DNA from: a virus
Taxonomy: Duplodnaviria; Caudoviricetes
DNA length: 51,421 nucleotides
IMG/VR virus record: IMGVR_UViG_3300042994_000002
Location: 1 to 51,421 of that record
Strand: one strand, 5' to 3'
Position numbers and translations under genes: made by a program. A model generated the notes under the pieces. That model was not told the DNA's origin, made no database searches, and saw nothing but the letters and a program-made list of their open reading frames with translations. This document shows, piece by piece, positions 9,065-31,570 of this stretch. Positions within the stretch are counted from its first letter, which is position 1; each line of letters opens with the position of its first letter.

Positions 9065-9080
9065 GCGTTGAAGATCGCAT

Positions 9081-9141: not shown

Positions 9142-9148
9142 GGTGATC

Positions 9149-11676: not shown

Positions 11677-11690
11677 CTCCAGAGGTCCCC

Positions 11691-12041
11691 ATGAACGCTC
11701 ATTCCAAGATACAGCGCTTCGCATGCGCTTGCTGCGGTGGCGACATCGGCGAGGCAACCACGATTGCCGCCGTGAGGGCACATCTCACCCAGCCGACCCA
11801 CATCATAATCTTCGATCAGCTGTCGGCCGCGCCCGGCTCTCCGGTGCTGCGCGAGACCATCATCACTGCGCTCTATGGCCCGCGCACTCGCTGGCCGTCC
11901 ACCGCCCTCGGCAATCTCCGGAATCGCATCTGCCAGCTGCGCAAGATCATCGAGCCCATGGGCTGGTGCATCACCCACGCGCGCGGCGCGAAGGGCGACG
12001 GCGCGAGCTGGAGGCTCATCCCCACGGAGGTCACGCCATGA
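11691..12041 (+). CDS. CxxC + winged-helix (Trans_reg_C-like) protein
   Basis: CACCGG; RETIITALYG...LRNRICQLRKII..GW.I. Confidence 0.7.
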   Translation: MNAHSKIQRFACACCGGDIGEATTIAAVRAHLTQPTHIIIFDQLSAAPGSPVLRETIITALYGPRTRWPSTALGNLRNRICQLRKIIEPMGWCITHARGAKGDGASWRLIPTEVTP

Positions 12042-16321: not shown

Positions 16322-16950
16322 CATTCGAGGAAGTTCAGGAACTGTTCGTTCGGGCGGCCTACATCGACCGCAAGATGATGCGGGAGAGCGTCTTGCCGGC
16401 GGCCGGCTCACCGTGGCCACGCTACCATCATGAGGCTGGCGATATAGCTGGCTGGTCCAAAGAGGACCGGAAGGCCTACGAGAAGAAGCTGGCGCGCAAC
16501 GGCGGCGACTACGGCGACGCCCGCCGCAGCCGAGAGGCCATCACCACGTGGGAGCAGGCGAGCGAGCTGATCAAGCTGGTGACGCACGAGGGACACCGCC
16601 GCTGCCTCCTCGCATGGGCTATGGCCATGGCCGGCGGCAGACCATTCGTCCGGTTCTGCGAGGGCGAAAACCTCCAGGAGGATCGCGCGAGACGGTGGAA
16701 AAACAAGGCAATTGCCCGAATTGTAGCGGAAAGCAAATCAGAAGCGCCCTACGATAGCGGAGAAGCTGTTTTAGCAGTGTTGCCTTCACCCCCTGAAAAA
16801 GGGCATAAAACACCTACGCTGGCGATCGACGCGACAACGCGGGGCGGTGCCTGGCGTGACCAAGAGACAGAGGCCGCGCGCGATACCATCCTCTCCGACT
16901 GGAAGGTTGGGCGCACATGGTGGCGCCGGAAGGCGCAGGCGGCAAGGTGA
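16318..16950 (+). CDS. Putative late transcription regulator (DUF6362/sigma-region-4-like)
   Basis: Last large early gene before packaging genes; WPRY and C-terminal HTH-like RRWKNKAIARI. Confidence 0.55.
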   Translation: MTFEEVQELFVRAAYIDRKMMRESVLPAAGSPWPRYHHEAGDIAGWSKEDRKAYEKKLARNGGDYGDARRSREAITTWEQASELIKLVTHEGHRRCLLAWAMAMAGGRPFVRFCEGENLQEDRARRWKNKAIARIVAESKSEAPYDSGEAVLAVLPSPPEKGHKTPTLAIDATTRGGAWRDQETEAARDTILSDWKVGRTWWRRKAQAAR

Positions 16951-18118: not shown

Positions 18119-18472
18119 ATGTCGAGAGGCGGCAGAAGGGAAGGCGCAGGCCGTAGGGCAGGTGTCCCCAACAAAGCTTCACAGGAGCGGCAGAAGAAGG
18201 TCGCGGAGAGCGGGATCACGCCGCTGGATTACATGCTGAAGGTCATGCGCGACAGTAAAGCAGACGCCTCTCGCCGGGATGAGATGGCCAAGGCCGCAGC
18301 ACCTTACGTGCACCCGAAGCTTGCCAGCACCCAGCACACCGGCCCAGGCGGCGGCCCGATTCAGACAATGGACATCACCAAGTTGAGCGACGATGACCTT
18401 GATAAGCTCGAAGCTATCCTCGGCCCGCTTGCCATCGCTGGCGGAGATCAGGGCGGAGAGGGAACGGCGTAG
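18119..18472 (+). CDS. terS: Terminase small subunit
   Basis: RGGRREGAGR, TPLDYML, AKAAAPYVHPKL; upstream of terL. Confidence 0.85.
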   Translation: MSRGGRREGAGRRAGVPNKASQERQKKVAESGITPLDYMLKVMRDSKADASRRDEMAKAAAPYVHPKLASTQHTGPGGGPIQTMDITKLSDDDLDKLEAILGPLAIAGGDQGGEGTA

Positions 18473-19922
18473 GATCATCGCTGACCGCCAGCAGCTCGCG
18501 CAGAACGCCGAGCGCATCCGGGAGAGGTGCAAGACCCTCGCCGGGTTCGTCCGCGAAGCATGGCACGTGGTGGAGCCCAGCTCGCCCTATGTGCATGGCT
18601 GGCACCTCGACGCGATCAGCGAGCACCTCGAGGCGGTGACGGATGGCCGGATCAACCGGCTCCTGATCAACGTGCCGCCCGGCACCATGAAATCGTTGCT
18701 CACGTCGGTTCTCTGGCCGGCATGGGAATGGGGGCCGAAGGGCCGCCCGGCCACGCGCTACCTGACCACCAGTTACGCGGAGAAATACGTCAAGCGCGAC
18801 AGCCGCCGCATGCGCGACCTGGTGCAATCGGAATGGTATCGGTCGCTGTGGCCAGAGGTAGAGCTCGCCCGCGCTGGTGAGGCGTCTTTTGCCAACACGA
18901 AGACGGGCTTTCGCGAGGGCGTGCCCTTCGCCAGCCTGACCGGCGGCCGTGGCGATCGGGTGATCATCGACGATCCGCACTCGACCGAGACAGCGGAATC
19001 GGAAGCTGAGCGCCTGAACACGGCCCGCATATTTCGGGAGTCGGTGCCCACGCGCCTGAACGACCCGAAGACCTCCGCCATCATCGTGATTATGCAGCGC
19101 CTGCACGAGGATGACGTATCGGGCCAGATCATGAAGCTCGGGCTCGGGTACGAGCACCTGATGCTTCCCATGGAATTCGAGCCGGAGCGCCGGTGCAGGA
19201 CATCCATCGGGTTCGAGGATCCGCGCACCTATGACGGGGAGCTGCTGTTCCCCGATCGCTTCCCTCGCGAGGTGGTCGAGCGCGACAAGGTGCCGATGGG
19301 CTCCTATGCCGTCGCCGGCCAGTTCCAGCAGCGGCCGACGCCTCGTTCGGGCGGCATGTTCCAGCGGAACGACTTCGAGATCGTAGGCGCGGTGCCAGCG
19401 GGTGCAAGGCGGTGCAGGGCATGGGACTTTGCAGCTTCCGCGCCGAAGCAAGGCAAGCAGCCGGATTGGACCGTGGGGCTCAAGATGGCCCACCTCGACG
19501 GCGTCTTCTATGTCGAGGACGTGGTGCGCGGCCGGTGGAAGCCGGGCGAGGTAGAGACCACGCTCAAGAACACCGCCAGCCAGGACGGGACCGATGTCAT
19601 CATCCGGATGCCGCAGGACCCCGGCGCGGCCGGCAAGGCAGACGCGGCCACCAAGGTAAAGCTGCTGGCAGGCTATGCCGTCGAGGTGCAGTCCGTGACC
19701 GGCGACAAGGCCACTCGGGCAAAGCCTGCTTCCGCCCAGGCGGAGGCGGGGAACGTCAAGCTCCTCAGGGGCGACTGGAACCAAGCCTTCCTCGATGAAG
19801 TCTGCTCGTTCCCCAATGCGCAGTTCGACGACCAGGTGGATGCCTTCGCGGACGCTCTGAACGAGCTTGCGCTCAACTCGGCCCCGCGCGTGGCCATGTT
19901 CCTGACGAAACGCCATCGATAG
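18393..19922 (+). CDS. terL: Terminase large subunit
   Basis: INVPPGTMKS Walker A, IIDDP Walker B, MQRLH, WDFA and DDQVD nuclease motifs. Confidence 0.95.
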   Translation: MTLISSKLSSARLPSLAEIRAERERRRIIADRQQLAQNAERIRERCKTLAGFVREAWHVVEPSSPYVHGWHLDAISEHLEAVTDGRINRLLINVPPGTMKSLLTSVLWPAWEWGPKGRPATRYLTTSYAEKYVKRDSRRMRDLVQSEWYRSLWPEVELARAGEASFANTKTGFREGVPFASLTGGRGDRVIIDDPHSTETAESEAERLNTARIFRESVPTRLNDPKTSAIIVIMQRLHEDDVSGQIMKLGLGYEHLMLPMEFEPERRCRTSIGFEDPRTYDGELLFPDRFPREVVERDKVPMGSYAVAGQFQQRPTPRSGGMFQRNDFEIVGAVPAGARRCRAWDFAASAPKQGKQPDWTVGLKMAHLDGVFYVEDVVRGRWKPGEVETTLKNTASQDGTDVIIRMPQDPGAAGKADAATKVKLLAGYAVEVQSVTGDKATRAKPASAQAEAGNVKLLRGDWNQAFLDEVCSFPNAQFDDQVDAFADALNELALNSAPRVAMFLTKRHR

Positions 19923-19930: not shown

Positions 19931-21310
19931 ATGAACCAGGTTGTAAGGCTGACGAACTTTGTTGAGCGTCGGCTCCACTCCATGTTCCCGGGCTTCTTCC
20001 CGACCGCCAAGCACAACCATTATGTGGATTTCGGCTACCCGACCGAGCTGGACTTCAGCCAGCTTTACTCGATGTTCTGCCGGAACGGCATCGCAGCGGC
20101 CGCCATCAACAAGACGGTCCTGAAGACCTGGCAGGACAACCCCTTCCTGCTCGAAAAGGAGCGGGACGGCTCACAGAAGGGCGGGGAGAACGAAACGACG
20201 CTCGAGCGGGAGATCCGCCAGCGGTTCGACGATCTGCGCCTGTGGGCCCGCCTTGCCGAAGCTGACCGGCGCTCGCTGGTTGGGGAATATGCGGCGGTGA
20301 TCCTCCGCTTCGCCGACAGCAAGAACTTTGATCAGCCGGTGGACCGGGTTAGCGGCGGGCTTGATGGGCTGGTGGAAGTCATCCCAGTCTGGCAGGCGCA
20401 GCTCGACGTGGCAGAATGGGACACGGTGGAAAGCTCGCTGACCTATGGCCAGCCTTCCATGTTCAGCTTCAAGGAATCGGCCGTAGGCGGCACCAAAGGC
20501 AAGCAGCGGCAGTTCAACGTTCATCCCGATCGGGTGATCATCTGGTCAAGCGACGGCACCATCCATGGCCGGTCCCTGCTGGAGCCCGGCTACAACGATC
20601 TGCTGACCATTGAGAAGGTGAGCGGGGCAGGGGGCGAAGGCTTCTGGAAGAACGCCAAGGCCGCGCCGGTGCTGGAGATGGACCCGGATGCGCGCATCAC
20701 CGACATGGCGAAGGCCATGGGTGTGACTGAGTCCGAAATCGCCGACAAGATGAACGCGCAGGTGGCCGACTGGCAGAAGGGCTTTGATCAGCTCCTGATG
20801 CTGCAGGGCATACAGGCGAAGACGCTGAGCGTGACGCTCCCGTCGCCCGAGCACTTCTATGGTGTCCCGCTCCAGTCCTTTGCCGCTTCCATCAACATGC
20901 CGGTCAAAATCCTCGTCGGCATGCAGACGGGCGAGCGCGCATCGAAGGAAGACGCTGACGAGTGGGCGCAGACGAACATGTCGCGCCGCGCCAATCAAGT
21001 GGTCCCGACCATCATGGAGCTTGTTCGGCGCCTGGAGCGCGTGGGCATCCTGCCTGAGAAGGACTGGTTCCTCGATTGGCCCGATCTGACCGAGGCCTCG
21101 ATGGTCGAGAAGATCGAGCGCGCCAACAAGATGGCCGACACAAACCAGAAGATGGGCAACAGCGTCTACGTCTTCACCGATGACGAGATCCGGGCGGCAG
21201 TGGGCTTCGAGCCTCTCTCTGACGCGGACAAGTACCGGGACGACATGACCGATGATGAAGCCAATGCGGCGGCAGGGAAGCCTCCTACAGACCCCCCGGA
21301 GGATGCGTGA
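19931..21310 (+). CDS. Portal protein (DUF1073-like)
   Basis: Position after terL; HPDRV, P.KILVGMQTGERAS..D motifs. Confidence 0.88.
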   Translation: MNQVVRLTNFVERRLHSMFPGFFPTAKHNHYVDFGYPTELDFSQLYSMFCRNGIAAAAINKTVLKTWQDNPFLLEKERDGSQKGGENETTLEREIRQRFDDLRLWARLAEADRRSLVGEYAAVILRFADSKNFDQPVDRVSGGLDGLVEVIPVWQAQLDVAEWDTVESSLTYGQPSMFSFKESAVGGTKGKQRQFNVHPDRVIIWSSDGTIHGRSLLEPGYNDLLTIEKVSGAGGEGFWKNAKAAPVLEMDPDARITDMAKAMGVTESEIADKMNAQVADWQKGFDQLLMLQGIQAKTLSVTLPSPEHFYGVPLQSFAASINMPVKILVGMQTGERASKEDADEWAQTNMSRRANQVVPTIMELVRRLERVGILPEKDWFLDWPDLTEASMVEKIERANKMADTNQKMGNSVYVFTDDEIRAAVGFEPLSDADKYRDDMTDDEANAAAGKPPTDPPEDA

Positions 21311-21609
21311 TGCAGCTCACTGGCGTAACCGGTCACCGCAAGTCATGGCGTGGCAAGATAGTCGTCACTGTAGAAGTCGGTGGCTACGCGATGTGGCCGC
21401 ATGAGAGAATGGTTCGGTGGGGCACGGTCTACCGAGATGCGACATCGGAAGACATGATCATGCTTGAGCTGATCAAGCTGGACCCGTCTCTCGCAACGCA
21501 GCCTGACGCGCTTTGCCCCATGCATCGCTCGATGCTTCGCAGCCCCAGGTGCGAAAGACATGAACCTGAGGCCGCCCTACCGGACCCGCCGCTGGCCCGC
21601 AGAAAGTAA
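21307..21609 (+). CDS. Hypothetical protein between portal and protease
   Basis: GTGA overlap; YRDAT motif. Confidence 0.55.
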   Translation: MMQLTGVTGHRKSWRGKIVVTVEVGGYAMWPHERMVRWGTVYRDATSEDMIMLELIKLDPSLATQPDALCPMHRSMLRSPRCERHEPEAALPDPPLARRK

Positions 21610-21622
21610 CAAAGGAATCCCC

Positions 21623-22738
21623 ATGCCCCAGGTGCGTGTGAACGTCAGGTCACTGGCGAACGTGAAGGCTGTGCGCAAGGAAAAGCGCAACGGCCGTGAC
21701 GTGGTGATCGTCCCCTCGGCAACCCTGCCGGACAACGTCATCATGAACGGCATCCTCTATCCGCCGGAGGAGATCGAGAAGAGCTATCAGACGCTCAATC
21801 GGAAGCCGGCGCCGCTCGGTCACCCCAAGGTCAACGGCAAGTTCGTCTCCGCGTCGGACCCGGAAGGCATCAACCTCGGCTACATCGGCGCATGGAACGA
21901 GAACGTCCGGCGCGAAGGCGGCCGGGTGCTGCTCGACAAGGTGATTGACGTCGAGGTGGCCAATCGATCCGAGGGCGGCAAGGCGGTGCTGGCAGCGATT
22001 GAGGCAGGCGGCCCCGTCCACACCTCCACGGGCCTCCTGTGCACGCTGGAGGCTGCCAACGCCGACGATCACAAGCACATCGCCCGCAACATGCTGTTCG
22101 ACCATGACGCCATCCTCCTGAACGAGGAGGGCGCGGCGAAGCCTGAGCAGGGCGTGGGCATGCTCGTCAACGCCAAGGGCGAGATCGAAGAAATCACGGT
22201 CATCAACTCGTCTCTGACTGACGCTGCTGATCAAGAGATCGATTGGGCGGGCACCCGCCTCGTCGAGGCACTCAGGCGCCGCGAGAACATCGGCATCTGG
22301 GACAAAGTCAAAACCGCAATCATGGATGCCATGGGCTCCGGGCGGGTACCCTCAACAAACGCAAAGGAAGACGAGATGTCCGTCACTGACGAACAGTTCA
22401 AGTCGCTTTCCGATGAGGTCAAGGCCCTCTCGGAAGGCATGGGTAAGATCGGCGATACCGTCGCCACTGCCGTGAATGCCGCCCTGAAGCCGATCCTCGA
22501 CCAGCAGGCCGAGATCGTCGCCAACCAGAAGGCCAAGGACGAAGCCGAGACCGCCGAGCTGGTGACCAAGGTCGTGAAGGCCAACATCCTCGACGAGGAC
22601 ACCGCCAAGGCCACGCCGCTGAACACGCTGCGCAAGCTGGCGGAGAAGGCTGCACCCGGCACCGCGGCGCCGCTCCACAACGCTTACCAGCCGGGTGGCG
22701 CGTCCACGGGCTTCAAGCTTCCGAAGGGAGACAAGTAA
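21623..22738 (+). CDS. Prohead protease/scaffold (DUF2213-like)
   Basis: PAPLGHP, HTSTG, DHDAILL; coiled C-terminal scaffold. Confidence 0.85.
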   Translation: MPQVRVNVRSLANVKAVRKEKRNGRDVVIVPSATLPDNVIMNGILYPPEEIEKSYQTLNRKPAPLGHPKVNGKFVSASDPEGINLGYIGAWNENVRREGGRVLLDKVIDVEVANRSEGGKAVLAAIEAGGPVHTSTGLLCTLEAANADDHKHIARNMLFDHDAILLNEEGAAKPEQGVGMLVNAKGEIEEITVINSSLTDAADQEIDWAGTRLVEALRRRENIGIWDKVKTAIMDAMGSGRVPSTNAKEDEMSVTDEQFKSLSDEVKALSEGMGKIGDTVATAVNAALKPILDQQAEIVANQKAKDEAETAELVTKVVKANILDEDTAKATPLNTLRKLAEKAAPGTAAPLHNAYQPGGASTGFKLPKGDK

Positions 22739-22739
22739 C

Positions 22740-23186
22740 ATGGCGCGCTACAACAAGATTTATGGCGGCCCGGTCCAGGAGACCATGCCGCAGGTGCACG
22801 AGGCGATCTGCGACACCGCGGTTCTTCCCGGTACCGCCGTTGTCCGCACTGCGGGCAAGTTTGTCGCGGCTGTCGCAGCCAGTAAGGGCCGGATGTTCGT
22901 CGTTCAGGACAACTACCTGGCGCTGAAGGATGTCGACACGGCGTGGCCGGCCGGCGACCGCATCGTGGCGATGGAGATGCTGGACGAGATGCTGTTCCGG
23001 GCTCGCGTGCCCACCGGCACCAGCATCACCCAGGACGCTGCGCTGACCATCAACGCCGCCGGCAAATTCGTCCCGGCCACCACGGGCAACTTCGTGGTGG
23101 CGCACGCGAATGAGACCTACAACAACACCTCTGGTTCCGACCAGCTTGTCAGCGTCCGCGCTGCCAAGGGCTACCACTTCGCTTAA
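22740..23186 (+). CDS. Head decoration/cement protein
   Basis: Small beta-rich protein immediately before the major capsid gene. Confidence 0.75.
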   Translation: MARYNKIYGGPVQETMPQVHEAICDTAVLPGTAVVRTAGKFVAAVAASKGRMFVVQDNYLALKDVDTAWPAGDRIVAMEMLDEMLFRARVPTGTSITQDAALTINAAGKFVPATTGNFVVAHANETYNNTSGSDQLVSVRAAKGYHFA

Positions 23187-23198
23187 GGGGGAACCGAC

Positions 23199-24233
23199 AT
23201 GCGATATTTCGATGAGCAGCTCGTCGCGAACTCCCGCGACCATCAGCGCTGGTGGGGCGAAGTCACCGCCGACCGCGAGCACTTCCACCGCGTGGAAGAG
23301 CACATGGCAGGCCTGCACAATGCTTCGGCGGTCCTCCCGCGCGATGCCTGGCAGGATCTCGACGACATCACCCGCCGTGTGATGCGCACCGACGAGGGCG
23401 CCGTGTGGATGGACGATCTGATGCCGCTGGCCAAGCCGGTCAACATCGGCAAGATCGTGGTCCTCAACCGCGTTTCCGGTGACGCCGGCGCGGTCACCCG
23501 CTCGCTCTCCGGTCAGGTGCCGGTTGGGCTCGATAAGGTCGGCTATGACTACCGTGGTACGGTCGTTCCGGTCTTCTCGTCCGCTTATGGCCGCGAATGG
23601 CGTGAGTGGAACACCCTGCAGAGCGAGAACTTTGACGCTCTCGCAGACGATCAGGAAGCCATTACGGCGAAGGTCAAGCGCGACAATGCGCTCTTCGTCC
23701 TCAATGGCGACAGCTCGATCGTCTTCCAGGGTTACACCGCCTATGGCATCAAGAACTCGCCCTATTCCAAGGTGATCAACGTTGGCCCGTCCGGCGCGAA
23801 CGTCGATCTGACCACGGCGACTTGGGCGCAGCTCGATGCGTTCTTCAATGGCCCGTTCGGCGCCATGCTGGATGCCAATCTGATCGTCGGCAAGGTCAAC
23901 CTGTATGTCTCTCCCGAGATCATGCGGAACCTCGACCAGCAGATCAATCCGTCCGCAGGCTCCACCCTCGGCACCCGCCTCGAGCAGCTGCTGAAGAACC
24001 GCCGCCTCAACAAGATCGCGGTGTCGTTCGAGCTGACCGGTAACCAGTTCTTCGGCTTCGTGCCGTCGGCTGAGTACATCCGCCCCCGGATTGGCATGGC
24101 CACCAACACGACCGCCATGCCGCGCAACATGCCGACTGCGAACTATCAGTTCCTCGTCATGAACGCGATGGGCATCGAGATCCGCGCCGACATCAACGGC
24201 AAGTCCGGCGTCTTCTACTCGACCTCGACCTGA
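23199..24233 (+). CDS. Major capsid protein
   Basis: 344 aa, position, YGREWRE motif, followed by a terminator. Confidence 0.88.
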   Translation: MRYFDEQLVANSRDHQRWWGEVTADREHFHRVEEHMAGLHNASAVLPRDAWQDLDDITRRVMRTDEGAVWMDDLMPLAKPVNIGKIVVLNRVSGDAGAVTRSLSGQVPVGLDKVGYDYRGTVVPVFSSAYGREWREWNTLQSENFDALADDQEAITAKVKRDNALFVLNGDSSIVFQGYTAYGIKNSPYSKVINVGPSGANVDLTTATWAQLDAFFNGPFGAMLDANLIVGKVNLYVSPEIMRNLDQQINPSAGSTLGTRLEQLLKNRRLNKIAVSFELTGNQFFGFVPSAEYIRPRIGMATNTTAMPRNMPTANYQFLVMNAMGIEIRADINGKSGVFYSTST

Positions 24234-24267
24234 CCGGCGGCGGACCTGAGCACCAAGGCATGAGCAT

Positions 24268-24300
24268 AGGCCTCGTCATCCCGGCGGGGCCTTTCCGTTT
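24268..24300 (+). terminator. Rho-independent terminator after the capsid gene
   Basis: AGGCCTCGTC-N5-GGCGGGGCCT followed by TTCCGTTT. Confidence 0.7.
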
Positions 24301-24327
24301 CAGCATTTTCACCAAGGGACCATCCCC

Positions 24328-24786
24328 ATGAAAATCAAGTTCATCGCGCCGTACGCCGGCGCATCCAGCTCGGGCATCTTCGGCGCTGACGGCAAGGAAA
24401 TCCCGCTCGGTACCGAGGTCGAGGTCGAAAAGGAGCCGATCGATCTCCGTGGCCGCTATGAGGTCGTTTCCGGCGGCAATGACGAGGGCAAGACGGCTGT
24501 CAACAATCCGGTCGACGGTGGCCCGCTGAACAAGGCGGCTGTCACCACCGACGGCGAAAACCCGAAGCCGGGCGCCGAGAACGCGCCGCTTTCGCAGACG
24601 GACAACGGCACCGCCGGTGGATCCTCCATCCCCGTCTATGAAGCCCGCGACAAGGGTGAAGGCTGGTGGGGCATCTATGATGCCGACGGCAATCAGGTGG
24701 GCAAGTCCATCCGGAAGGATGAAGCCGCCAAGTTCAATGCCCTCTCCGACGAAGTGAAAGCCGAGTTCGTCAAGCAGGACACCTAA
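24328..24786 (+). CDS. Hypothetical head-associated protein
   Basis: Position after MCP; KGEGWWGI motif. Confidence 0.7.
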   Translation: MKIKFIAPYAGASSSGIFGADGKEIPLGTEVEVEKEPIDLRGRYEVVSGGNDEGKTAVNNPVDGGPLNKAAVTTDGENPKPGAENAPLSQTDNGTAGGSSIPVYEARDKGEGWWGIYDADGNQVGKSIRKDEAAKFNALSDEVKAEFVKQDT

Positions 24787-24821
24787 CGCCTCCGCCCACC
24801 AGATCAGCCAAGGAATTGAAA

Positions 24822-27152
24822 ATGGCCCTGTACTCTCGCTTCATAGCTGCCCTGGTGGGCGCTGGCATCGTCGCAACCGCTCCCTCGGGCGGCGGAACGA
24901 CGCTTGCAATCAGTGGCGTCCCTGGGGGCGCTACAGTCGGTACGCCTTATAGCTTCACGCCTGTTGTCACAGGCGGCAGCGGCACCAAGAGCTTCACCTT
25001 GGTTGGCTCGCTTCCAGCTGGCCTTTCCTTTAGCTCCTCGACGGGCGCGATTACTGGCACCCCCACGACTTCCGGCACATCATCGCCCTTCGATATCATC
25101 GTGTCCGATGCCAGCGGCTCGAAGACCCTTTCCGGACGCGTTATCACCGTCGCGGCCGCCCCCGAGGTGCCGGTCATGGTTGCCCGCAATGCCGTCGTGA
25201 TGACGGGGCCAGGCCACAGTAATGCCGCGCTGCTGACCGGGGACGGCACCGAGAAGACGTATCAGATCGATTTCCAGAACGTTTCTGGCGCGCCGATGAC
25301 CATGGCCAGCCTGGTAACGATCGGCTGGCAGGTCCAGGCAGACGGCGGCGGCGCGCAGAAGCTGAGCGTGGGAAACGACATCACCATCACCTCCGCCACC
25401 ATCGAATATCCCATCGGCGGCGGATCGCCTGCCAGCATGGATGTCGGCACGACGGTCAACGGGGGCATCCGCTCCGGCAATGGCGTGGCGCTGACGAACG
25501 CAGTTCCGCACGGCGCTACGGCCCGGCTGATCCTGAAGGCGACGCCGCCCAACGGTCAGAAGTACAGCGCGAACTTCGGTTTGGCCGGCATTCGCACCCA
25601 TGCCATGAGCAACACGCTGAGCCCCTGCGGCCTCGGCACCAGCGACAGCATTGCGACCAACGACGGCAGCTACTGCATCAGCGCCGCCAACGACAATTAC
25701 CCGTGGGTGCACTTCGGAGTTATCGGCAACAAGCTGCAGCGCGCTGCGGCGATGGCAACCGATTACGCCAATCTGGCTGCAGCTCTCAATGCCACGTACT
25801 TCTGCCTGTTCGGCACCAATGACGTGGGCTCCCGCACGCTGGCGCAGATGCAGGGCGATATCGGTACGCTCTCGGCAGCAATGTCCGCGCTGGCCGTGCC
25901 GATGTACTGCCACACGCTCCCGCCGAACGTCACGTCGACGAACGGGACCTATGCGCCCGGCGATCAGACCGTCAGCGCAGCAGAAGCCAACCGGATCGCC
26001 TATAACGACTGGATCCGCACCCAGCCGAGCGGCAACAAAGTGTTCGAGCTGGCGGATACGCTGGAAACCTCGCGCAACTCCGGTTTCTGGAAGTACGGTT
26101 CGGCCGACAACTACCACCTGACCGACAACGAGAATGTCACGGTCTCGGCCGTCACGTCTCAGACCCAGATCGCTTGCTCTGGGATGACGACCCCTTCGGC
26201 CGCGGCTGCATCGGCGGTTCTTCTCGCGACCAGCGGGGCGAATGCCGGGACCACCCGCAGCATCAGCAGTATCTCGGGCACCACGATCTTCCTGGCGTCC
26301 GCGTTCCCAAACACTGTGGCAATCGGCGACACCTTCACGGTCAAGCCTGTCACGAACAAGGCCACGACGGACGGCCTGCACCTGACTGCGCCTTACCCGA
26401 ACGGGTTGCAGTTCGGCGGCTTCTTCATCGCTCGCGATGCCATCCGCTCGCTCATGCTGTCCATCTTGGCAGCGGCGAACAAGGCTCCTCACGTCAAGTG
26501 GGGCGCCATCGATGTCACGGGCGCGAACGGTGCGACGGCGGCGGCCAATGTCAATTATCCGCCCAACATCCAGGTCGATGACCGGGCGTTCATTGTCGTC
26601 GCTTCGTCGAACCAGCCGATCGCCGCTCCTACCGGCTGGACCGAGCGTGCATCGGTCGGATCAGGGACGGCCGGCGCGGCGGGTGCCGTCCGGTGCCAGG
26701 TGTTCGAGAAGGATACCCCGTATGCGGTAGGCGATGCGGTCCCGTCCATCGACGGCACCGGCACCAACCACATCGTCTACAAGATGTTCTCTGTCCGAGG
26801 GGCAAAGAAGGCGGGATCGAGTGTGGCGCAGGTGGCGACAGCCATCGACAGCGCTGCAAGCCTTTCCGGCAGCTTCCCGGCCGTCACCACCACGCAGGAC
26901 GGGTGCCTGATCCTGAACATCCTGGCGGACGAGTACGACAATGCCGGAGCCCGCCTGAGTGGTGAGAGCAACCCGAACTTGCTGTTCCTCACCGAGCGTC
27001 TCGACCTCGGCAACGTCACGGGCAACGGTTCTGGGTTGGGCGTCTACTCAGGGATGCTCCCAGCCGCAGGATCGAGCGGCCAGACGGCATTCACGCACAC
27101 GCAGACCACAGACAAGGCGCTGGTGACGATGGCCATCAGGCGCGACCTGTAA
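24822..27152 (+). CDS. Putative head fibre: He_PIG Ig-like domain + SGNH/GDSL esterase + beta-rich C-terminal domain
   Basis: GSLPAGLSFSSSTGAITGTPT (He_PIG); SGNH blocks TSDSI, GVIGN, FGTND, DGLH. Confidence 0.8.
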   Translation: MALYSRFIAALVGAGIVATAPSGGGTTLAISGVPGGATVGTPYSFTPVVTGGSGTKSFTLVGSLPAGLSFSSSTGAITGTPTTSGTSSPFDIIVSDASGSKTLSGRVITVAAAPEVPVMVARNAVVMTGPGHSNAALLTGDGTEKTYQIDFQNVSGAPMTMASLVTIGWQVQADGGGAQKLSVGNDITITSATIEYPIGGGSPASMDVGTTVNGGIRSGNGVALTNAVPHGATARLILKATPPNGQKYSANFGLAGIRTHAMSNTLSPCGLGTSDSIATNDGSYCISAANDNYPWVHFGVIGNKLQRAAAMATDYANLAAALNATYFCLFGTNDVGSRTLAQMQGDIGTLSAAMSALAVPMYCHTLPPNVTSTNGTYAPGDQTVSAAEANRIAYNDWIRTQPSGNKVFELADTLETSRNSGFWKYGSADNYHLTDNENVTVSAVTSQTQIACSGMTTPSAAAASAVLLATSGANAGTTRSISSISGTTIFLASAFPNTVAIGDTFTVKPVTNKATTDGLHLTAPYPNGLQFGGFFIARDAIRSLMLSILAAANKAPHVKWGAIDVTGANGATAAANVNYPPNIQVDDRAFIVVASSNQPIAAPTGWTERASVGSGTAGAAGAVRCQVFEKDTPYAVGDAVPSIDGTGTNHIVYKMFSVRGAKKAGSSVAQVATAIDSAASLSGSFPAVTTTQDGCLILNILADEYDNAGARLSGESNPNLLFLTERLDLGNVTGNGSGLGVYSGMLPAAGSSGQTAFTHTQTTDKALVTMAIRRDL

Positions 27153-27248
27153 GGACGTGACGAACATGGATGCAATGCGTGCGCTCGCTCCTGAATGGGC
27201 GGGCGCGCTTACCCGTCCGATGGAGCCAACATCAACTGGAGGCGCAAC

Positions 27249-27458
27249 ATGCCCCCTGTGAGCGTCAATGTCAGAGGGGCGAGTGGCATCGGGCTTCTGG
27301 TCGGGATCGGCATCATCAAGCCTCCGACCCAGCCGCCAGGGGGAGGGGCAGGGGCAGGGCCGATGCTGCTCAACCCCATTCCTGACCAGTTCTATCTGGG
27401 CAACGCAGCGCCCGTGGTCGCCAACCCGATCGGGGTCGTGATCTACACGCCATCATGA
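27249..27458 (+). CDS. Small (69 aa) fibre-adaptor-like protein, in frame with the next gene
   Basis: GGAGG RBS; IGLLVGIGI N-terminal motif, Pro/Gly linker, two P.xxNPI strands. Confidence 0.6.
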   Translation: MPPVSVNVRGASGIGLLVGIGIIKPPTQPPGGGAGAGPMLLNPIPDQFYLGNAAPVVANPIGVVIYTPS

Positions 27459-27470
27459 GAGGTTCTGCCA

Positions 27471-29024
27471 ATGGTTTGGCATTTCAAGGTCCCGGCGAAC
27501 ACGTTCAGTGATCCGGACGGCGACACGCTGACCTATTCCGCCACCAAGGAAGATGGTAGCCCGCTCTGGAACTGGATGACCTTCGATCCAGTGGAGCGCG
27601 AGTTCACGGCCATCCCTGAGCAAGCGGGCATCTTCTCCGGCATGTTCCGCGTGAAGGTGACGGCGAGCGACGGCGCGGCATCCGTCTCTGACGTGTTCAC
27701 GTTGTTCCTCGGGGACAGTGAAGGCCTGCCGATTTTCGCGTCGCTTCCGGCGACCGCTGCCGAGCGGCCTAAGATCTCGATCTACGACTGCATTATCACC
27801 GGCCCTGGAGTGGCCACGGTCATTTTCGGCCTCAGTGCCATCCCGCGCGGCACCATGGTTTGGAAGTGGACCACGCAGAATGGCGAGAACACCGCGTCGG
27901 GGACCCACTACACGTTCAAGAGCGGATACATCAATTTCCAGCCGGGGGAGCGGTTCGGCTCAGTGCAGGTGCCGATCCTGGCCAACCTAAATGCGAACCA
28001 GCGCATCCGGGTGCAGCTCACCGGGAACGGCCAGAACCTCTCGGGCACGGCGATTCGCGGCACCGCATACATCATGACCCAAGCGGCAGCAGATGCATTC
28101 GCTGCGGCTGGTACGCCGACGGTACCGCCGCCGGTCGGATACGACCTCACAAAGACCATCCTGCCGGGGGTCCCGAAGAACAAGGTGGGCTACACGACAG
28201 TCTTCCATCCCGACCTGATCAATGACTTCCAAGCATCCGACACGGGCTACAAGGCTGACGGTGTCACGCCCTGCTGGTTCTCCAAGCCCCATGAGGGAGC
28301 AACCTCGATGTCCGGCCGCGAGCAGACCGGCAACAAGGAGGATGGCATCTATGCGGATCCCTCTTTGCCGCAGTTCGCCGGCCTTAATTCTTTCCCGCTG
28401 GTGACGGATGGGGGAGAGCAGTACCGGGCGGTGCGCGCAGAATATCTGGATGGGCAGAACGGCAAGCCCGGCCCCATCCCGAGCCCGAGCATCGCGAAGA
28501 CATACGAATACGCAGCCGCGATGATCACAAGCCGGACCTTGTTCCCGGATATCGACATTGGCGACTTTGTGGAGGCCGAGACGAAAGTAAACCCGGTTGC
28601 CCACACCTGGGCGGCCTTCTGGCTTATGCCGACGGAAGGCTGGCCGCCGGAGATCGACATCTTCGAGTATTTCCTTGTAACACTGGGGAAAGAACGGGTC
28701 GCCAGCACGATCCACTTCGGCGAAGACAAGCGCGCCTACGGCACCTACATCGGCTGGGACGAGATACTCGGCTACACCTGGGACTATGGATCGAAGACGC
28801 GCTGGGGCTGCTGGGTCACGGCCGGCTGGATCGTCTACTACATCAACGACATCCCTTATGCCATGTACCCGAACATGTGCTTGGCAGTGGATGGCCCGAA
28901 GAAGTGGTACATCCTGTTGAACATGGCGGTGGGCGGCAATGGCTCGGGCACCCCGAACAACCCGCAGGAATTTCCCGTGGACATGCTCATCAAGGATGTC
29001 CGGGTGTGGCGGAAGACCGCATAA
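27471..29024 (+). CDS. Cadherin-like/He_PIG + Calx-beta-like + GH16 glycanase (ExsH/EglC-like)
   Basis: VPANTFSDPDGDTLTYSAT; TASGTHY..SG.INFQPGE; WAAFWLMP.GWPPEIDIFE (ExDxxE); YILLNMAVGG. Confidence 0.85.
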   Translation: MVWHFKVPANTFSDPDGDTLTYSATKEDGSPLWNWMTFDPVEREFTAIPEQAGIFSGMFRVKVTASDGAASVSDVFTLFLGDSEGLPIFASLPATAAERPKISIYDCIITGPGVATVIFGLSAIPRGTMVWKWTTQNGENTASGTHYTFKSGYINFQPGERFGSVQVPILANLNANQRIRVQLTGNGQNLSGTAIRGTAYIMTQAAADAFAAAGTPTVPPPVGYDLTKTILPGVPKNKVGYTTVFHPDLINDFQASDTGYKADGVTPCWFSKPHEGATSMSGREQTGNKEDGIYADPSLPQFAGLNSFPLVTDGGEQYRAVRAEYLDGQNGKPGPIPSPSIAKTYEYAAAMITSRTLFPDIDIGDFVEAETKVNPVAHTWAAFWLMPTEGWPPEIDIFEYFLVTLGKERVASTIHFGEDKRAYGTYIGWDEILGYTWDYGSKTRWGCWVTAGWIVYYINDIPYAMYPNMCLAVDGPKKWYILLNMAVGGNGSGTPNNPQEFPVDMLIKDVRVWRKTA

Positions 29025-29042
29025 GCAAGACAGGTGGAGCAG

Positions 29043-29537
29043 ATGGCAGGCTACGGCACAGACAGCGGCTTCGATGCCTGGCTGAACGATAACGGCTACA
29101 CGCTGCCCGGCGACGCCCCAGCGCCTGCTGTGCTTCGTGAGCGTGGTAGCCAGTACATCGACGCCCTCTATGGCTCCCGCTTTGCCGGTGCCATCCTGAG
29201 CGTCGAGCAGGAGCGCCAGTGGCCCCGTGAAAGTGTCATCATTGGCGGGAAGCTGGTGCCTCCCGACCTGGTGCCGGGCGCTGTCATCAATGCCTCGTAT
29301 CTCGCGGCCTATCAGGAGGCGACGAGCCCAGGCAGCCTCTCGGCGGTCGGATCGGCCGCCTCGGCCGTCACGCGTGAGAAGGTCGGGCAGATCGAGGTCC
29401 AGTATGCCTCCGGCCAGAGCGACGGGACAGCAATGTCCATCACGCCGCTCATGTCCACTGTGGATGGAATGCTGAGGCCGTTTCTGCTCGACAGGGAGGC
29501 CAGAGGTCTAGGCATCTGGTCGGTGGGGTGCAGATGA
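29043..29537 (+). CDS. Head-tail adaptor (DnaT-like ssDNA-binding family)
   Basis: RGSQYID, QERQWPR, REKVGQIEVQY. Confidence 0.8.
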   Translation: MAGYGTDSGFDAWLNDNGYTLPGDAPAPAVLRERGSQYIDALYGSRFAGAILSVEQERQWPRESVIIGGKLVPPDLVPGAVINASYLAAYQEATSPGSLSAVGSAASAVTREKVGQIEVQYASGQSDGTAMSITPLMSTVDGMLRPFLLDREARGLGIWSVGCR

Positions 29538-29899
29538 CCAATCCGCTCTACACCAGCCTCCAGGGCAGCGCCGACAGGATGGTGAGCAAGTTCGGCAGTC
29601 CGAGCACCATCATCTCCGTCACCGAGCCCGACCCCATCGAGGGCGGCGAGCAGGTACCGACTGAACACCCGTGCCGCGCTGTCGTGATGACCTACGATCA
29701 GCGCTACGTGAATGGCACGACCATTCTGAGCGGTGACGTGCTGGTCTACATCTCCGCAATCGGCCTTCAGGTTGAGCCCAAGCCCGGCATGCCCATTGCT
29801 GTCGGCGGGCGAACCTATCTCATCATTTCGGTAGATCCGAACCGGTACGACGGGCAGACGCCTGTTGTCTACGTGTGCCAAGCAAGGAGCGCATCATGA
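29534..29899 (+). CDS. Head closure protein
   Basis: Position; NGTTILSGD motif. Confidence 0.7.
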   Translation: MTNPLYTSLQGSADRMVSKFGSPSTIISVTEPDPIEGGEQVPTEHPCRAVVMTYDQRYVNGTTILSGDVLVYISAIGLQVEPKPGMPIAVGGRTYLIISVDPNRYDGQTPVVYVCQARSAS

Positions 29900-30060
29900 A
29901 GGTCAAAGTGGAAACCATCCTCAAGCACGACGGCAACAAGGTCGGCGATACCTACGAGGTGACGGAAACGCAGGCGAAGGCGCTCACGGCGCTGGGTCTT
30001 GTGAAACCAGCCAATCAGACCGCCGCCAAGGCCGTCGACAAAGCTCAGAAGGTTGATTGA
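29896..30060 (+). CDS. Small hypothetical virion-module protein
   Basis: AGGAG RBS; GDTYEV...AKAL..LGLV. Confidence 0.65.
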   Translation: MKVKVETILKHDGNKVGDTYEVTETQAKALTALGLVKPANQTAAKAVDKAQKVD

Positions 30061-31112
30061 TGGCCACTCTCCGCCAGCAGCTGCAGGATCTCATCCAGGC
30101 GCTTGCGCCAGAGATGCAGAAGGCGTTTCTCGCCTCGATCGACGACATCAAGTCAGAGATCGTCCTGCGCGAGGTGGTGGAGCGTCTGGAGCGCCGGGAC
30201 ATCGAAGGGGCTATCGCGGCCCTGCACATCCAGCAGAGCGCCTTCCGGCCCGTCGCTGAGGCGATCCGGCAGGCCTTTAATGCCGGTGGCGCGCTTGTCG
30301 CCAAGGCGGTGCCGAAGCTGACGGACCTCCTCGGCGCCCGCATTGTCTGGCGCTGGGATGTCTCCAACCAGCGGGCGGAAGCGAAGATCCGCGAGCTGTC
30401 CTCGGCGCTGATCACGCGCGAGACCGAAACCACGAAAGAGGCAGCGCGACAAACCATCGTCGCAGCCTATGCGCAGGGGCAGGGGCCGAATTCCATTGCC
30501 CTAGACCTTGTCGGACGGAAGAGCGCGGTTACAGGGAAGCGAGAAGGCGGCGTCATCGGCCTCAATGGCCCACAGGCGGAGCTGATGAACCGGACACGCA
30601 TCAACCTGCTTTCCGGCGATCCGAAGCTGATGGCGAAGTACCTGACGCTCCAGACGCGGGACAAGCGCTTCGATGGCGCGGTGCGCAAAGCCATAGCGGC
30701 CGGGAAGCCGCTGGACGCGGACACGCTGAACAAGGTTCTAGCGAGGCTTCGCGATCGCAACCTGAAGCTCCGCGGCGACACAATCGCGCGGACGGAGACC
30801 TACACGTCGGTCATGTCAGCAAAGCATGAGGCATACCAGCAGGGCCTAGATGCAGCCGGCCGCGATGCGAGCCTCGTGACGAGGAAGTGGCGGTCGGCAG
30901 GAGACCGCAAGGTCAGGCACACCCACATGGTGCTCAATGGTGCCGAGGTGAAAGGGATGGACCTGGCTTTCCAGTCGCCATCTGGCACCATGCTGCGCTA
31001 CCCCGGAGACACCGAGCTCGGCGCAGGGCCGGCCGAGATCATCAACTGCCGGTGCGATGTTGAGTACAACTTCGACTTCGCCGAGGCCTTCGCTCGCTCA
31101 AGGGGGCGGTGA
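30060..31112 (+). CDS. Head morphogenesis protein (Mu gpF / SPP1 gp7-like)
   Basis: IARTET, KWRSAGDRKVRHTH, INCRC. Confidence 0.88.
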   Translation: MATLRQQLQDLIQALAPEMQKAFLASIDDIKSEIVLREVVERLERRDIEGAIAALHIQQSAFRPVAEAIRQAFNAGGALVAKAVPKLTDLLGARIVWRWDVSNQRAEAKIRELSSALITRETETTKEAARQTIVAAYAQGQGPNSIALDLVGRKSAVTGKREGGVIGLNGPQAELMNRTRINLLSGDPKLMAKYLTLQTRDKRFDGAVRKAIAAGKPLDADTLNKVLARLRDRNLKLRGDTIARTETYTSVMSAKHEAYQQGLDAAGRDASLVTRKWRSAGDRKVRHTHMVLNGAEVKGMDLAFQSPSGTMLRYPGDTELGAGPAEIINCRCDVEYNFDFAEAFARSRGR

Positions 31113-31570
31113 TGTCGTTTGCTGCTCAGATCTCAGAATGGGCGCGCGAGACAGAAGGCGCGCTCGAAACGGTCTTCCACACTGCGGCTCAGACGGTAGC
31201 CAACGAGGTGCGCGACCCTGTGGCGGCTGGCGGACGTATGCCGGTAAAGACGGGCAACCTGCGGCGCTCGCTGATGGCTTCGACTTCGGGAATGCCGGCA
31301 GTCAAGCAGGAGCCGGCGCAGTACGCGGACAGCGGTTTAGAGATGGTCATCGCCGGCGCGACGCTTGGCGCCACCGTCTATCTGGGCTTCCAGGCAAACT
31401 ATGCTGCTCGGATGAACTATGGCTTCGTCGGAGAGGATTCGCTCGGGCGGGTGTACGACCAGAAGGGTTATGGGTTCGTGGATGCCGTGGCCCAGCGGTG
31501 GCCGCAGATCGTGGCAGAGGCAGAAGCTAAGGTTCGAAGCCGTCTTGAAGCTGCCCCTCCTTCAGCATGA
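31112..31570 (+). CDS. HK97 gp10-like tail completion protein
   Basis: MPVKTGNLRRS, YAARMNYG. Confidence 0.82.
   Translation: MSFAAQISEWARETEGALETVFHTAAQTVANEVRDPVAAGGRMPVKTGNLRRSLMASTSGMPAVKQEPAQYADSGLEMVIAGATLGATVYLGFQANYAARMNYGFVGEDSLGRVYDQKGYGFVDAVAQRWPQIVAEAEAKVRSRLEAAPPSA

Follow-up and report, generated by a model that had tools for sequence, protein, structure and literature searches.

A candidate esterase-glycanase cassette between the capsid and head-tail adaptor genes of a temperate Rhizobium siphophage

Introduction

The closest described relatives of the glycanase discussed here belong to the Sinorhizobium T4-type phages PhiM12 and PhiM9. In the PhiM9 paper (PMC4621102), PhiM12_182 is named ExsH-like and given as both detected and "abundant in" the proteome of PhiM12, the glycanase of the two phages is proposed to cut host exopolysaccharide, and the PhiM9 counterpart gene lies within a baseplate/neck cluster. 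For the esterase, Rhizobium phage vB_RglS_P106B offers a parallel: two SGNH-type esterase genes, gp13 and gp14, lie between its coat and MuF genes (PF13472, E 1e-3 and 4.6e-7, both below the cut-off). E. coli phage G7C gp63.1 acts as an O-antigen deacetylase, and a paper on phages Moo19 and B2 is said to deal with esterase tailspikes. T4 Hoc and T5 pb10 are capsid decoration proteins that have a defined capsid-binding domain and carry no enzyme domain. Prophages that encode an enzyme cutting the receptor together with a gene modifying it are a familiar pattern (Sf6, P22). York and Walker are said to have reported in 1998 that acyl groups affect the cleavage of succinoglycan by the glycanases ExoK and ExsH.

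Here we analyze a window of 51,421 nucleotides (the whole stretch of DNA), which is a prophage whose two ends, 1-47 and 51375-51421, are 47-nt att repeats.

Results

The slot between head and connector genes

A first-pass annotation of this DNA placed two large enzyme genes between the capsid gene and the head-tail adaptor, and coordinates and profile matches agree. The left boundary of the slot is the major capsid gene (23199-24233, +; DUF6260, E 1.8e-116; phrog_771, E 1.5e-122), whose product (MCP) matches Sf11 gp39 in the PDB (9ocb, E 2.3e-80). The right boundary is the head-tail adaptor gene Ad1 (29034-29537, +; phrog_477, E 9.4e-34; PF20557, E 1.6e-22), with the first tail genes approximately 2.7 kb farther downstream. 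After the capsid gene comes a conserved 152-aa gene of unassigned function (24328-24786, +; phrog_26087, E 7.6e-21), which tblastn finds at the same position in most of 44 related loci. The slot genes are closely packed, with intergenic gaps of 29, 96 and 9 nt, and a search across 22500-31500 found no promoter-like site; the esterase and GH16 genes are thus part of the late structural operon. Their GC3 is 0.80-0.81, compared with 0.84 for the capsid gene.

How often is this slot occupied? We surveyed 44 MCP-related loci and used the 29 with both a recognizable MCP and Ad1 for distances. The MCP-Ad1 distance is at most 680 bp in 25 of these 29 and exceeds 1.2 kb in four; here it is 4.8 kb. The slot is therefore variable, and an insertion of this size is rare among the relatives. 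Phages phiLM21 and RHph_X3_2 have the slot without an insert, and none of the 44 loci carries a homologue of either slot enzyme (tblastn, E<=1e-5). In the nearest relative, a prophage from Rhizobium leguminosarum bv. trifolii CC278f (L020; MCP 88% identical), the slot holds a single GDSL esterase (PF13472, E 6e-12). Its N-terminal 25 residues are shared with our esterase (14/25 identical) and nothing else is; elsewhere it is unrelated to ORF778. A shared N-terminus on differing bodies has the pattern of an attachment or targeting module that is conserved while the enzymes it carries are exchanged.

The esterase

The esterase gene (ORF778) runs from ATG 24822 (TTG 24816 in the longest ORF) to 27152 (+) and encodes 776 or 778 amino acids; residue numbers below count from the TTG. 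Its homologues P0004 (87% identity) and P0005 (59%) begin at the equivalent Met. The first-pass call of an SGNH esterase holds: all three motifs, TSDSI (Ser278), FGTND (Asn335) and DGLH (Asp519/His522), are found, together with Gly304; the blocks are conserved and the modelled fold matches two-domain carbohydrate esterases. The SGNH domain (approximately residues 266-556; 25611-26483, +), delimited by conserved blocks and fold, includes a beta insertion at approximately 437-512, with the Ser278 codon at 25647-25649 and DGLH at 26370-26381 (both +). Preceding it is a beta-sandwich domain (approximately residues 121-265; 25176-25610, +; AF2 strands 121-264). Searches of Pfam, PHROGs and NCBIfam gave no match for the SGNH domain. 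The homologues keep the SGNH blocks and have a canonical GDS; in the present esterase Ser replaces the first Gly of that block. In the AF2 model (mean pLDDT 84.6) the loop with DGLH (513-532) falls below pLDDT 50, and the catalytic Asp and His are modelled poorly. The beta-sandwich and SGNH domains together (model range 115/121-551/554) align to 7tog (Z 23.0, rmsd 4.1, 299 aligned) and to 9kqz (Z 23.0; Foldseek E 8.9e-11). Many further GDSL/SGNH structures match at Z 12-17.

The esterase begins with a hydrophobic, Gly-rich peptide ending in GGG (residues 3-27; 24822-24896, +; pLDDT <50), which is retained in P0004 and P0005 and is a candidate anchor or targeting module. Next comes a He_PIG Ig-like domain (approximately residues 28-115; 24897-25160, +; PF05345, E 4.5e-10) that also matches SraP Ig modules (E 9e-6). 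It is absent from the closest homologues: in the alignment with P0004 and P0005 it stands as inserted sequence. An internal Met121 follows GAGG, and the protein database entry P0003 (658 aa) starts there; initiation at this site could yield an esterase lacking both the N-terminal peptide and the Ig domain. At the other end lies a double beta-sandwich domain (residues 571-778; 26526-27149, +; pLDDT 91.1 when modelled alone by AF2). It has no significant fold match in the PDB (best Z 7.9), no Foldseek match at E<=0.001 and no Pfam family. Of 1961 matches in the representative search (E<=1e-3), the best 150 fall mostly on this C-terminus, a widespread phage domain without a name.

The GH16 glycanase and the 69-aa ORF

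The second enzyme gene (27471-29024, +; 517 aa, ORF517; phrog_17064, E 6.4e-47) encodes a truncated He_PIG domain (residues 1-80), a Calx-beta-like domain (approximately 95-200) and a GH16 domain (approximately 255-517). The motif EIDIFE (28650-28667, +; Glu394/Asp396/Glu399) lies within WPPEIDIFE, as the first reading had it. A sequence search of the PDB at E<=1 gave 13 matches, every one a GH16 enzyme; in the best of them, laminarinase 6jh5 (E 1.8e-8), the catalytic EIDIME stands opposite EIDIFE. Against Pfam PF00722, ORF517 falls short of E 0.01, and the phage homologues tested pass (3/3). The GH16 assignment stands, and the label "ExsH-like" proved too narrow: with the NCBIfam EglC model, whose cut-off is 700 bits, the protein obtains 39, and S. 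meliloti eglC is 27% identical (E 2e-4). Aligned over residues 96-514 (81% of its length), ORF517 is 30% identical to PhiM12_182; judged by sequence, it is a member of the PhiM12/PhiM9 glycanase family already in print.

Upstream of the GH16 gene is a 69-aa ORF (27249-27458, +; protein database gene P0323) with GGAGG 6 nt before its ATG and a GC3 of 0.76 in its frame. Its product has a Gly-rich, hydrophobic N-terminus, a Gly-Pro linker and then the beginning of an Ig domain, and its C-terminal VVANPIG matches the first part of complete He_PIG domains. The He_PIG match of ORF517 (E 1.2e-6) covers profile positions 21-93 only, with the first strand missing. The stop of the small ORF, TGA at 27456-27458, is in the same frame as the GH16 gene, and an Ig domain is thereby divided between the two by an in-frame TGA.

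A third enzyme and the right-end cassette

The first-pass annotation also named a SASA esterase in the tail module, and we find it in the tail/lysis region, downstream of the fibre genes and upstream of the endolysin (42948-43727, +; SASA-family carbohydrate esterase, PF03629, E 3.8e-47, residues 18-252 of 259). Farther right and still within the att repeats, a cassette at 45895-49568 encodes an Acyl_transf_3 protein (45895-47109, +; Pfam E 1e-15), a Wzy_C protein (47324-48769, +; Pfam E 3.3e-14) and an SDR (48777-49568, +; Pfam E 7.8e-60), and it also matches the phrog_3333 O-acetyltransferase. These matches suggest that the cassette serves conversion of the O-antigen or surface polysaccharide.

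Discussion

We lean towards the view that the slot holds an accessory cassette of a Rhizobium siphophage, whose esterase and GH16 glycanase act, borne on the particle, on acylated host surface polysaccharide. The two enzyme genes and the 69-aa ORF would have been inserted in the late structural operon of this temperate phage. The first product is a carbohydrate O-acyl esterase of several domains (after the N-terminal peptide and the Ig domain, a beta-sandwich with an SGNH core of the acetyl-xylan-esterase type, then the C-terminal beta domain), and ORF517 a GH16 endo-beta-glycanase of the PhiM12/PhiM9 family. Both would be produced late alongside the structural proteins and be carried on the virion. 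The presumed target is an acidic exopolysaccharide (EPS), capsule or O-antigen: the esterase would remove acyl groups and the glycanase would then cleave the backbone, so that the receptor is reached. The enzymes probably aid passage through the host slime layer. Since the PhiM12/PhiM9 glycanase is already described and the PhiM12 protein was found in the phage proteome, virion association and an exopolysaccharide role of the GH16 protein are plausible and not new. Of the original enzyme-pair interpretation, the enzyme types, intact motifs, operon position and link to the PhiM12 family are supported; capsid attachment, the ExsH-like label and the lock-and-key link to the right-end cassette are not.

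Where on the particle might the enzymes sit? The first-pass annotation took the Ig domains to hold both of them on the capsid, which would de-acylate and cleave EPS while the lysogen re-decorates its own EPS through the right-end cassette. The two genes do lie directly between capsid-side genes and the adaptor, each enzyme has a He_PIG domain, and the N-terminal peptide recurs in the esterase that L020 has in its slot. The att-bounded prophage also encodes an acyltransferase, a Wzy-like protein and an SDR, which fit re-decoration, and the acyl-group effect attributed to York and Walker (1998) speaks for the scheme as well. However, gene order is the one argument for a capsid location, and the anchoring by Ig domains, present as they are in both proteins, is an interpretation rather than an observation. 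In the related Sf11 capsid a beta-tulip decoration protein, whose homologue is encoded here at 22695-23186 (E 9.7e-15), fills all threefold sites. By annotation or by gene position, relatives of both enzymes belong with tail, baseplate, neck or non-structural genes; in particular, phage SGNH esterases resembling our model bear the annotation minor tail or tail fibre protein, among them G7C gp63.1, a tail fibre of solved structure (4qnl; Z 11.4, rmsd 4.0, 181 aligned). The cassette resembles O-antigen conversion (phrog_3333, Wzy_C) and not EPS synthesis, and removal of acyl groups by the phage would cancel the protection given by acylation unless the specificities differ. The lock-and-key idea, moreover, is the already known seroconversion paradigm. 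We give the capsid scheme as a whole little chance. If the enzymes are virion-associated, the tail is a somewhat better candidate site than the head or neck.

Two further explanations dispense with the particle. The enzymes might be soluble late products, freed at lysis, that thin the matrix around the burst cell and let progeny spread. The GH16 relatives in PhiM12, RHph_X2_24 and RHph_X3_15 have non-structural genes as neighbours, so free enzymes are possible; domain profile searches found no known particle-binding domain in either enzyme, the 259-aa SASA esterase is nearly all catalytic domain, and the Met121 start would give a form without N-terminal peptide and Ig domain. Against this, PMC4621102 reports PhiM12_182 in the PhiM12 proteome, a free enzyme has no evident need of Ig-like domains or a conserved N-terminal peptide, and the enzyme genes are flanked by two structural genes within a structural operon. 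We regard soluble enzymes as unlikely. Still less probable, in our judgement, is export of the esterase through a Sec-type signal peptide for moron-like conversion in the periplasm or at the cell surface. Its N-terminus could be read in this way, with Lys2/Arg8, approximately 12 hydrophobic residues and the small residues of A-T-A-P-S-G-G-G, and the sphingomonad relatives L025 and L028 have in their slots small ORFs with signal-peptide-like N-termini (signal-peptide character was judged by eye). But the homologues compared (P0005, P0175, P0179, P106B gp13 and gp14) begin with Gly-Leu repeats or Gly runs, with neither a charged n-region nor a proper hydrophobic core; the single A-x-A site has Pro right after it, ORF517 lacks such a segment, and no promoter-like site precedes the slot genes.

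Comparison with known systems clarifies what is peculiar to this putatively particle-borne pair. Like T4 Hoc and T5 pb10, the slot enzymes have Ig-like domains and are encoded near the capsid gene; unlike them, they carry enzyme domains and no recognizable capsid-binding domain. G7C gp63.1 likewise has an SGNH esterase domain, there on a phage structural protein. The slot esterase differs from such tail-fibre and tailspike esterases in its domain order, in its head-connector slot and in having no recognizable tailspike N-terminal adaptor, and its best structural relatives are not gp63.1 but cellular acetyl-xylan and polyvinyl-alcohol esterases. These, PbeAcXE (7tog) and 9kqz, share the order of beta-sandwich then SGNH (Z 23.0, model residues 121-554), yet sequence identity is just 14-16%, and the phage protein adds the beta insertion at approximately 437-512, the Ig domain, the C-terminal domain and the Ser in the GDS block. 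P106B gp14 is 36% identical to the slot esterase over residues 131-369, and the N-termini of gp13 and gp14 are Gly-rich as well; P106B, however, is lytic and of another genus (Rigallicvirus), and its esterases have no Ig domain, GH16 partner or C-terminal domain. ORF517 has its GH16 catalytic domain in common with S. meliloti ExoK, ExsH and EglC (EglC model, E 3.9e-10), but it has no RTX repeats (no PF00353 match) and no signal peptide. PhiM12_182 and PhiM9_121 share with it the Calx-beta-like and GH16 domains, phrog_17064 and the conserved catalytic motif. Unlike them, ORF517 adds an N-terminally truncated He_PIG domain with the in-frame 69-aa ORF upstream, and its gene resides in a temperate siphophage, between capsid and adaptor genes and adjoining an esterase.

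A Gene Pair Inserted between Capsid and Adaptor Genes

The esterase gene (ORF778; 24816 or 24822 to 27152, plus strand; 778 or 776 amino acids, with residues counted here from 24816) and the GH16 glycanase gene (ORF517; 27471–29024, plus strand) form a pair at 24822–29024, in the interval between the major capsid gene and the head-tail adaptor gene Ad1, which we call the slot. The late operon around them lies on the plus strand. It runs from the terminase (18393–19922) and portal (19931–21310) genes through a phrog_760 gene (21560–22738), a beta-tulip-type decoration protein (22695–23186; 9ocb, E = 9.7e-15), the major capsid protein (23199–24233; 9ocb, E = 2.3e-80) and a conserved 152-aa gene (24328–24786) to the enzyme pair, and then to Ad1 (29034–29537) and the head closure gene Hc1 (29528–29899). 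Neck1, tail terminator, tube, chaperone, tape measure, tip and fibre genes follow from 31109 onward. The capsid type is that of Shigella phage Sf11, for which a structure is available (9ocb). A MuF-like head morphogenesis gene (30057–31112) sits between the head-closure and Neck1 genes and not beside the portal; it does likewise in relatives, and the genes of this group therefore do not run strictly from head to tail.

We compared 44 prophage loci carrying a related capsid protein with ten proteins of the window. At E ≤ 1e-5, homologues of the esterase, the 69-aa ORF ahead of the glycanase gene, and the glycanase were found in none of the 44. The capsid and Ad1 genes are both recognizable in 29 loci; they stand at most 680 bp apart in 25 of these, which leaves room for the 152-aa gene only, and more than 1.2 kb apart in four (L020, L025, L028 and L053). 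The corresponding spacing in the window is 4.8 kb. The insert is also absent from the slot of the isolated phages phiLM21 and RHph_X3_2. The enzyme pair is thus an insertion into a conserved module, where relatives occasionally hold other cargo.

L020, a prophage of strain CC278f, is the most informative example: its slot (11521–12714) holds a single 397-aa GDSL esterase (PF13472, E = 6e-12). The similarity of this esterase to ORF778 is confined to the first 25 residues, 14 of which are identical (E = 0.008 in a single comparison), so that position and leader are shared but the enzyme body differs. The sphingomonad loci L025 (11245–14701) and L028 (9161–10483) point the opposite way, as their small slot ORFs have signal-peptide-like N-termini. 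A 317-aa ORF occupies the slot of Martelella limonii (L032, 11467–12420); the cargo ORFs of these last three loci have no Pfam match at E ≤ 0.01 apart from one at chance level. In the lytic Rhizobium phage P106B (L001, 7651–10515), two SGNH-type esterase genes, gp13 and gp14, follow one another between the coat gene and the MuF gene, and both products have Gly-rich N-termini; our literature search found no paper on this phage. Scans of viral and genome contigs for DNA of close homologues returned nothing nearer than distant GH16 and Ig domains, and a metagenome scan returned 70 loci, every one by its He_PIG domain only.

The genome is that of a complete temperate siphophage of 51,421 bases, flanked by a perfect 47-nt direct repeat (1–47 and 51375–51421). 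Because this repeat resembles the 3' part of a tRNA gene, with T-arm and acceptor end, and adjoins the integrase gene (134–1345, minus strand), the "direct terminal repeat" of the record represents the att copies of an integrated prophage rather than packaging repeats. ARAGORN found no whole tRNA in the 51,421-base window. A CI-type repressor is also encoded at the left end (8387–9379, minus strand). Three copies of a 33-nt repeat that contains a palindrome (TCGGGAAATGTCCCG...) lie at 7592–7624, 9122–9154 and 16704–16736; as two of them flank the repressor gene, these are candidate operator sites. The closest relative found is the prophage of Rhizobium leguminosarum bv. trifolii CC278f, with a major capsid protein 88% identical, and the host is thus very probably a Rhizobium.

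The Esterase ORF778

All the elements named in the first-pass annotation are present in the window where it had placed them, and its view of ORF778 as an SGNH esterase is borne out in three ways: by tblastn matches to SGNH-annotated phage genes, by blocks conserved in homologues with a canonical GDS motif, and by the match of the AF2 model to 7tog and 9kqz. In block I, the predicted nucleophile Ser278 (T-S-D-S-I) is matched by the GDS serine of eight homologues; the Gly of this block is replaced by Ser in both ORF778 and its homologue P0004. Gly304 of block II and G333-T-N335-D of block III, which form the oxyanion hole, are invariant in a three-sequence alignment (A4), and in the distant homologue P0174 INS replaces ND of block III. 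The D519-G-L-H522 of block V, with the predicted catalytic Asp and His, is kept in P0004, P0005, P0173, P0175, P0178, P0179 and P0206. The model has a mean pLDDT of 84.6, and the loop bearing Asp519 and His522 (513–532) is a low-confidence region (pLDDT < 50).

The model predicts a three-layer alpha/beta/alpha SGNH fold. Its likeness to two-domain carbohydrate esterases is strong (7tog: Z 23.0, rmsd 4.1, 299 aligned, over model residues 121–554; 9kqz: Z 23.0, Foldseek E = 8.9e-11); 4rsh also matches (Z 17.2, rmsd 2.6, 165 aligned), and Foldseek gives a probability of 1.00 with many GDSL structures. The esterase goes unrecognized by Pfam, PHROGs and NCBIfam, with no match to Lipase_GDSL or Lipase_GDSL_2 at E ≤ 0.01, and a PDB sequence search returned Ig modules only and no esterase. 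ORF778 thus belongs to the SGNH/GDSL superfamily by predicted fold and motifs, not by a curated sequence model. A tblastn search returned 22 records with SGNH-annotated genes, none spanning 80% of the query; they come from Rhizobium phages P106B and RHph_TM16, Sinorhizobium phage PhiM6 and Gordonia phages (18 records).

The protein opens with a hydrophobic, Gly-rich peptide ending in GGG (residues 3–27), followed by a He_PIG Ig domain (about 28–115; E = 4.5e-10), a beta-sandwich (121–265) and the SGNH domain (266–556), which contains a beta insertion at about 437–512. A flexible linker leads to a C-terminal double beta-sandwich (571–778; window 26526–27149). The N-terminal peptide is also present in the closest homologues, P0004 (87%) and P0005 (59%), which lack the Ig domain; this domain is therefore a recent insertion. 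An internal ATG, Met121, has a GAGG ahead of it (25164–25178), and the protein database starts the gene there (658 amino acids). A shorter form without leader and Ig domain may be made from it as an additional product.

No Pfam family covers the C-terminal domain. In a search of a representative library, which gave 1961 hits at E ≤ 1e-3, most of the best 150 match this domain, and it is found alone (about 230 amino acids) or fused, including in DUF6701 and Phage_tail_L/phrog_18 (tail) proteins. Atlas clusters resembling it are unnamed and mostly viral, and the domain belongs to a large family of that description. Modelled by itself, it reaches a pLDDT of 91.1, and Foldseek returned nothing at E ≤ 0.001. 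The best VIA Z-scores, 7.9 for Pgp3 (4jdn; rmsd 3.0, 103 aligned) and 7.5 for the Tuc2009 receptor-binding head (5e7f), both lie below the level that the tool treats as meaningful, so that a resemblance to receptor-binding head domains is no more than suggestive.

The GH16 Glycanase and a Third Enzyme

ORF517 had been described as a GH16 enzyme with an EIDIFE motif, and this agrees with what we find: E394-I-D396-I-F-E399 (E-x-D-x-x-E) aligns with the catalytic EIDIME of laminarinase 6jh5 and is invariant in all seven aligned sequences. All 13 PDB matches are GH16 enzymes, with 6jh5 at the top (E = 1.8e-8), and ORF517 matches the NCBIfam EglC model at E = 3.9e-10. ORF517 itself does not reach Pfam PF00722, which its homologue P0125 (E = 1.5e-6) and all three of the phage homologues tested pass. 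Judged from sequence, ORF517 is a GH16 enzyme. The catalytic domain follows a He_PIG domain (E = 1.2e-6, starting from profile position 21) and a weak Calx-beta-like domain (18 bits, under the cut-off). The He_PIG domains of ORF778 and ORF517 show no mutual similarity.

The label "ExsH-like" is too specific: ORF517 reaches 39.2 bits with NF052454, whose cut-off is 700, and its identity to eglC is 27% (E = 2e-4). ExsH carries RTX repeats and ExoK a signal peptide as export features; ORF517 has neither a PF00353 match nor a hydrophobic N-terminus. The proposed third enzyme, a SASA esterase, is readily recognized at 42948–43727 (plus strand; PF03629, 161 bits; cut-off 24.8), ahead of the endolysin gene (43761–44651, plus strand). 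The 22 nt at the DGLH codons of ORF778 (26362–26383) recur in this gene (43633–43654) with 91% identity, probably as merely a shared motif.

A Split Ig Domain ahead of the Glycanase Gene

The 69-aa ORF (27249–27458, plus strand) lies upstream of ORF517 in the same frame. It has a GGAGG ribosome-binding site and a GC3 of 0.76, consistent with coding sequence, and the protein database lists it as a gene; a word-index protein search with it returned only itself. Its N-terminus, a Gly-rich hydrophobic stretch with a Gly/Pro linker, resembles that of the esterase, and it terminates in ...VVANPIG..., the opening sequence of complete Ig domains of the same type. In complete domains VVANPIG comes about 10 residues before a W/F-x-F-x-V-P strand, and ORF517 begins with that strand. 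The He_PIG domain of ORF517 is truncated, and the C-terminus of the 69-aa ORF resembles the first strand that it lacks. A separate 163-aa Ig-like gene lies directly upstream of the GH16 homologue in the N4-like rhizobiophage RHph_X3_15 (L003, 8343–10131); we rejected its product as a homologue of the 69-aa ORF, as it is an unrelated Big_2 domain.

How might the two halves be used? One possibility is that the 69-aa protein complements the Ig domain of ORF517 in trans. Complex prediction with ORF517 residues 1–200 scored 0.57 against 0.28 for the best control; in the tool's calibration 51 of 78 solved complexes reached its mark, as did 2 of 108 mismatched pairs, with just 5 of the 78, plus all 4 mismatches that passed, at scores of 0.60 or below. 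The runs share at least 45% of contacts, and the partner has a pLDDT of about 40. This lends weak support to the modelled pairing, and the pass may reflect the likeness of the halves to whole Ig domains. A second possibility is read-through of the in-frame TGA (27456–27458), which overlaps a GAGG and is separated by four codons from the ATG of ORF517. The arrangement may also reflect decay, or a split gene. Since three close homologues of ORF517 (51–54% identity) share its M-V-W start and none of the three has the extension, the split appears to be old.

Location and Action of the Enzymes

The first-pass annotation had both enzymes anchored on the capsid, where they would de-acylate and then cut exopolysaccharide. 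The enzyme types hold and a role on exopolysaccharide is plausible, but nothing computed places the proteins on the capsid, and gene position is the sole argument for their binding there. A structural role of some kind is supported because the genes lie within the late operon (promoter-like sites are absent and codon-position GC resembles that of the capsid gene), because both proteins have Ig-like domains and ORF778 shares its leader with the L020 esterase, and because of the gene order in P106B and the proteome of PhiM12: passages of PMC4621102 report PhiM12_182, of the GH16 family, as detected and abundant there. The same paper already proposes an exopolysaccharide role for the family. Against the capsid in particular count the Sf11 decoration protein, which occupies every threefold site; the annotation of the esterase's closest structural neighbours among viruses as tail fibre or minor tail proteins; the structural match of the esterase to G7C gp63.1, which is a tail fibre; the position of PhiM9_121 in a baseplate/neck cluster; and the GH16 genes of PhiM12, RHph_X2_24 and RHph_X3_15, which lie among non-structural genes. 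ORF778 and ORF517 have no tail-adaptor match in PHROG or Pfam. On balance we lean towards predicted virion association of both proteins, and consider their action on exopolysaccharide plausible.

These observations could be drawn together by taking the slot as a place where genes for enzyme fibres of the head or neck are plugged in, with a leader docking route and a GH16 anchor route, a reading that we regard as improbable as a whole. The N-terminal Gly-rich, hydrophobic peptide of about 25 residues would dock interchangeable enzymes onto the particle. The glycanase would be anchored by the 69-aa protein in trans, completing the truncated Ig domain by strand complementation, or alternatively if the in-frame TGA is occasionally read through; in both cases the route would determine how many GH16 copies the virion carries. 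Should the shared peptide prove to be a docking module, phage particles could be loaded with cargo by means of a very small, transferable tag. Otherwise the locus becomes another case of polysaccharide-degrading enzymes carried by phages, which are a known class. The esterase/glycanase locus offers a test case for adding enzymes to particles outside the tail tip.

Surface Polysaccharides and Known Systems

In rhizobia, both symbiosis and access for phages are decided by the exopolysaccharides and the acyl groups that these carry. It is established that acylation influences ExoK and ExsH, as York and Walker reportedly described in 1998, and PMC4916376 contains related statements; the work concerns succinoglycan of S. 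meliloti, which is not the host of the phage here. Inside the prophage and adjoining attR, genes of the O-acetyltransferase (Acyl_transf_3) and Wzy/O-antigen-ligase (Wzy_C) families and an SDR gene (45895–49568, plus strand) make up what appears to be a typical surface-polysaccharide conversion cassette. The first-pass annotation had this cassette re-decorate the exopolysaccharide of the lysogen, in a lock-and-key arrangement with the two enzymes; such a tie between the product of the cassette and the substrate of the enzymes is hypothetical. A temperate phage with esterase and glycanase as a unit would provide a ready-made enzyme pair for dissecting exopolysaccharide and capsular polysaccharide structure. 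A prophage that combines a receptor-degrading virion enzyme with a receptor-modifying gene is a known pattern, as in Sf6 and P22, and the locus described here is a new arrangement of phage enzymes of known kinds.
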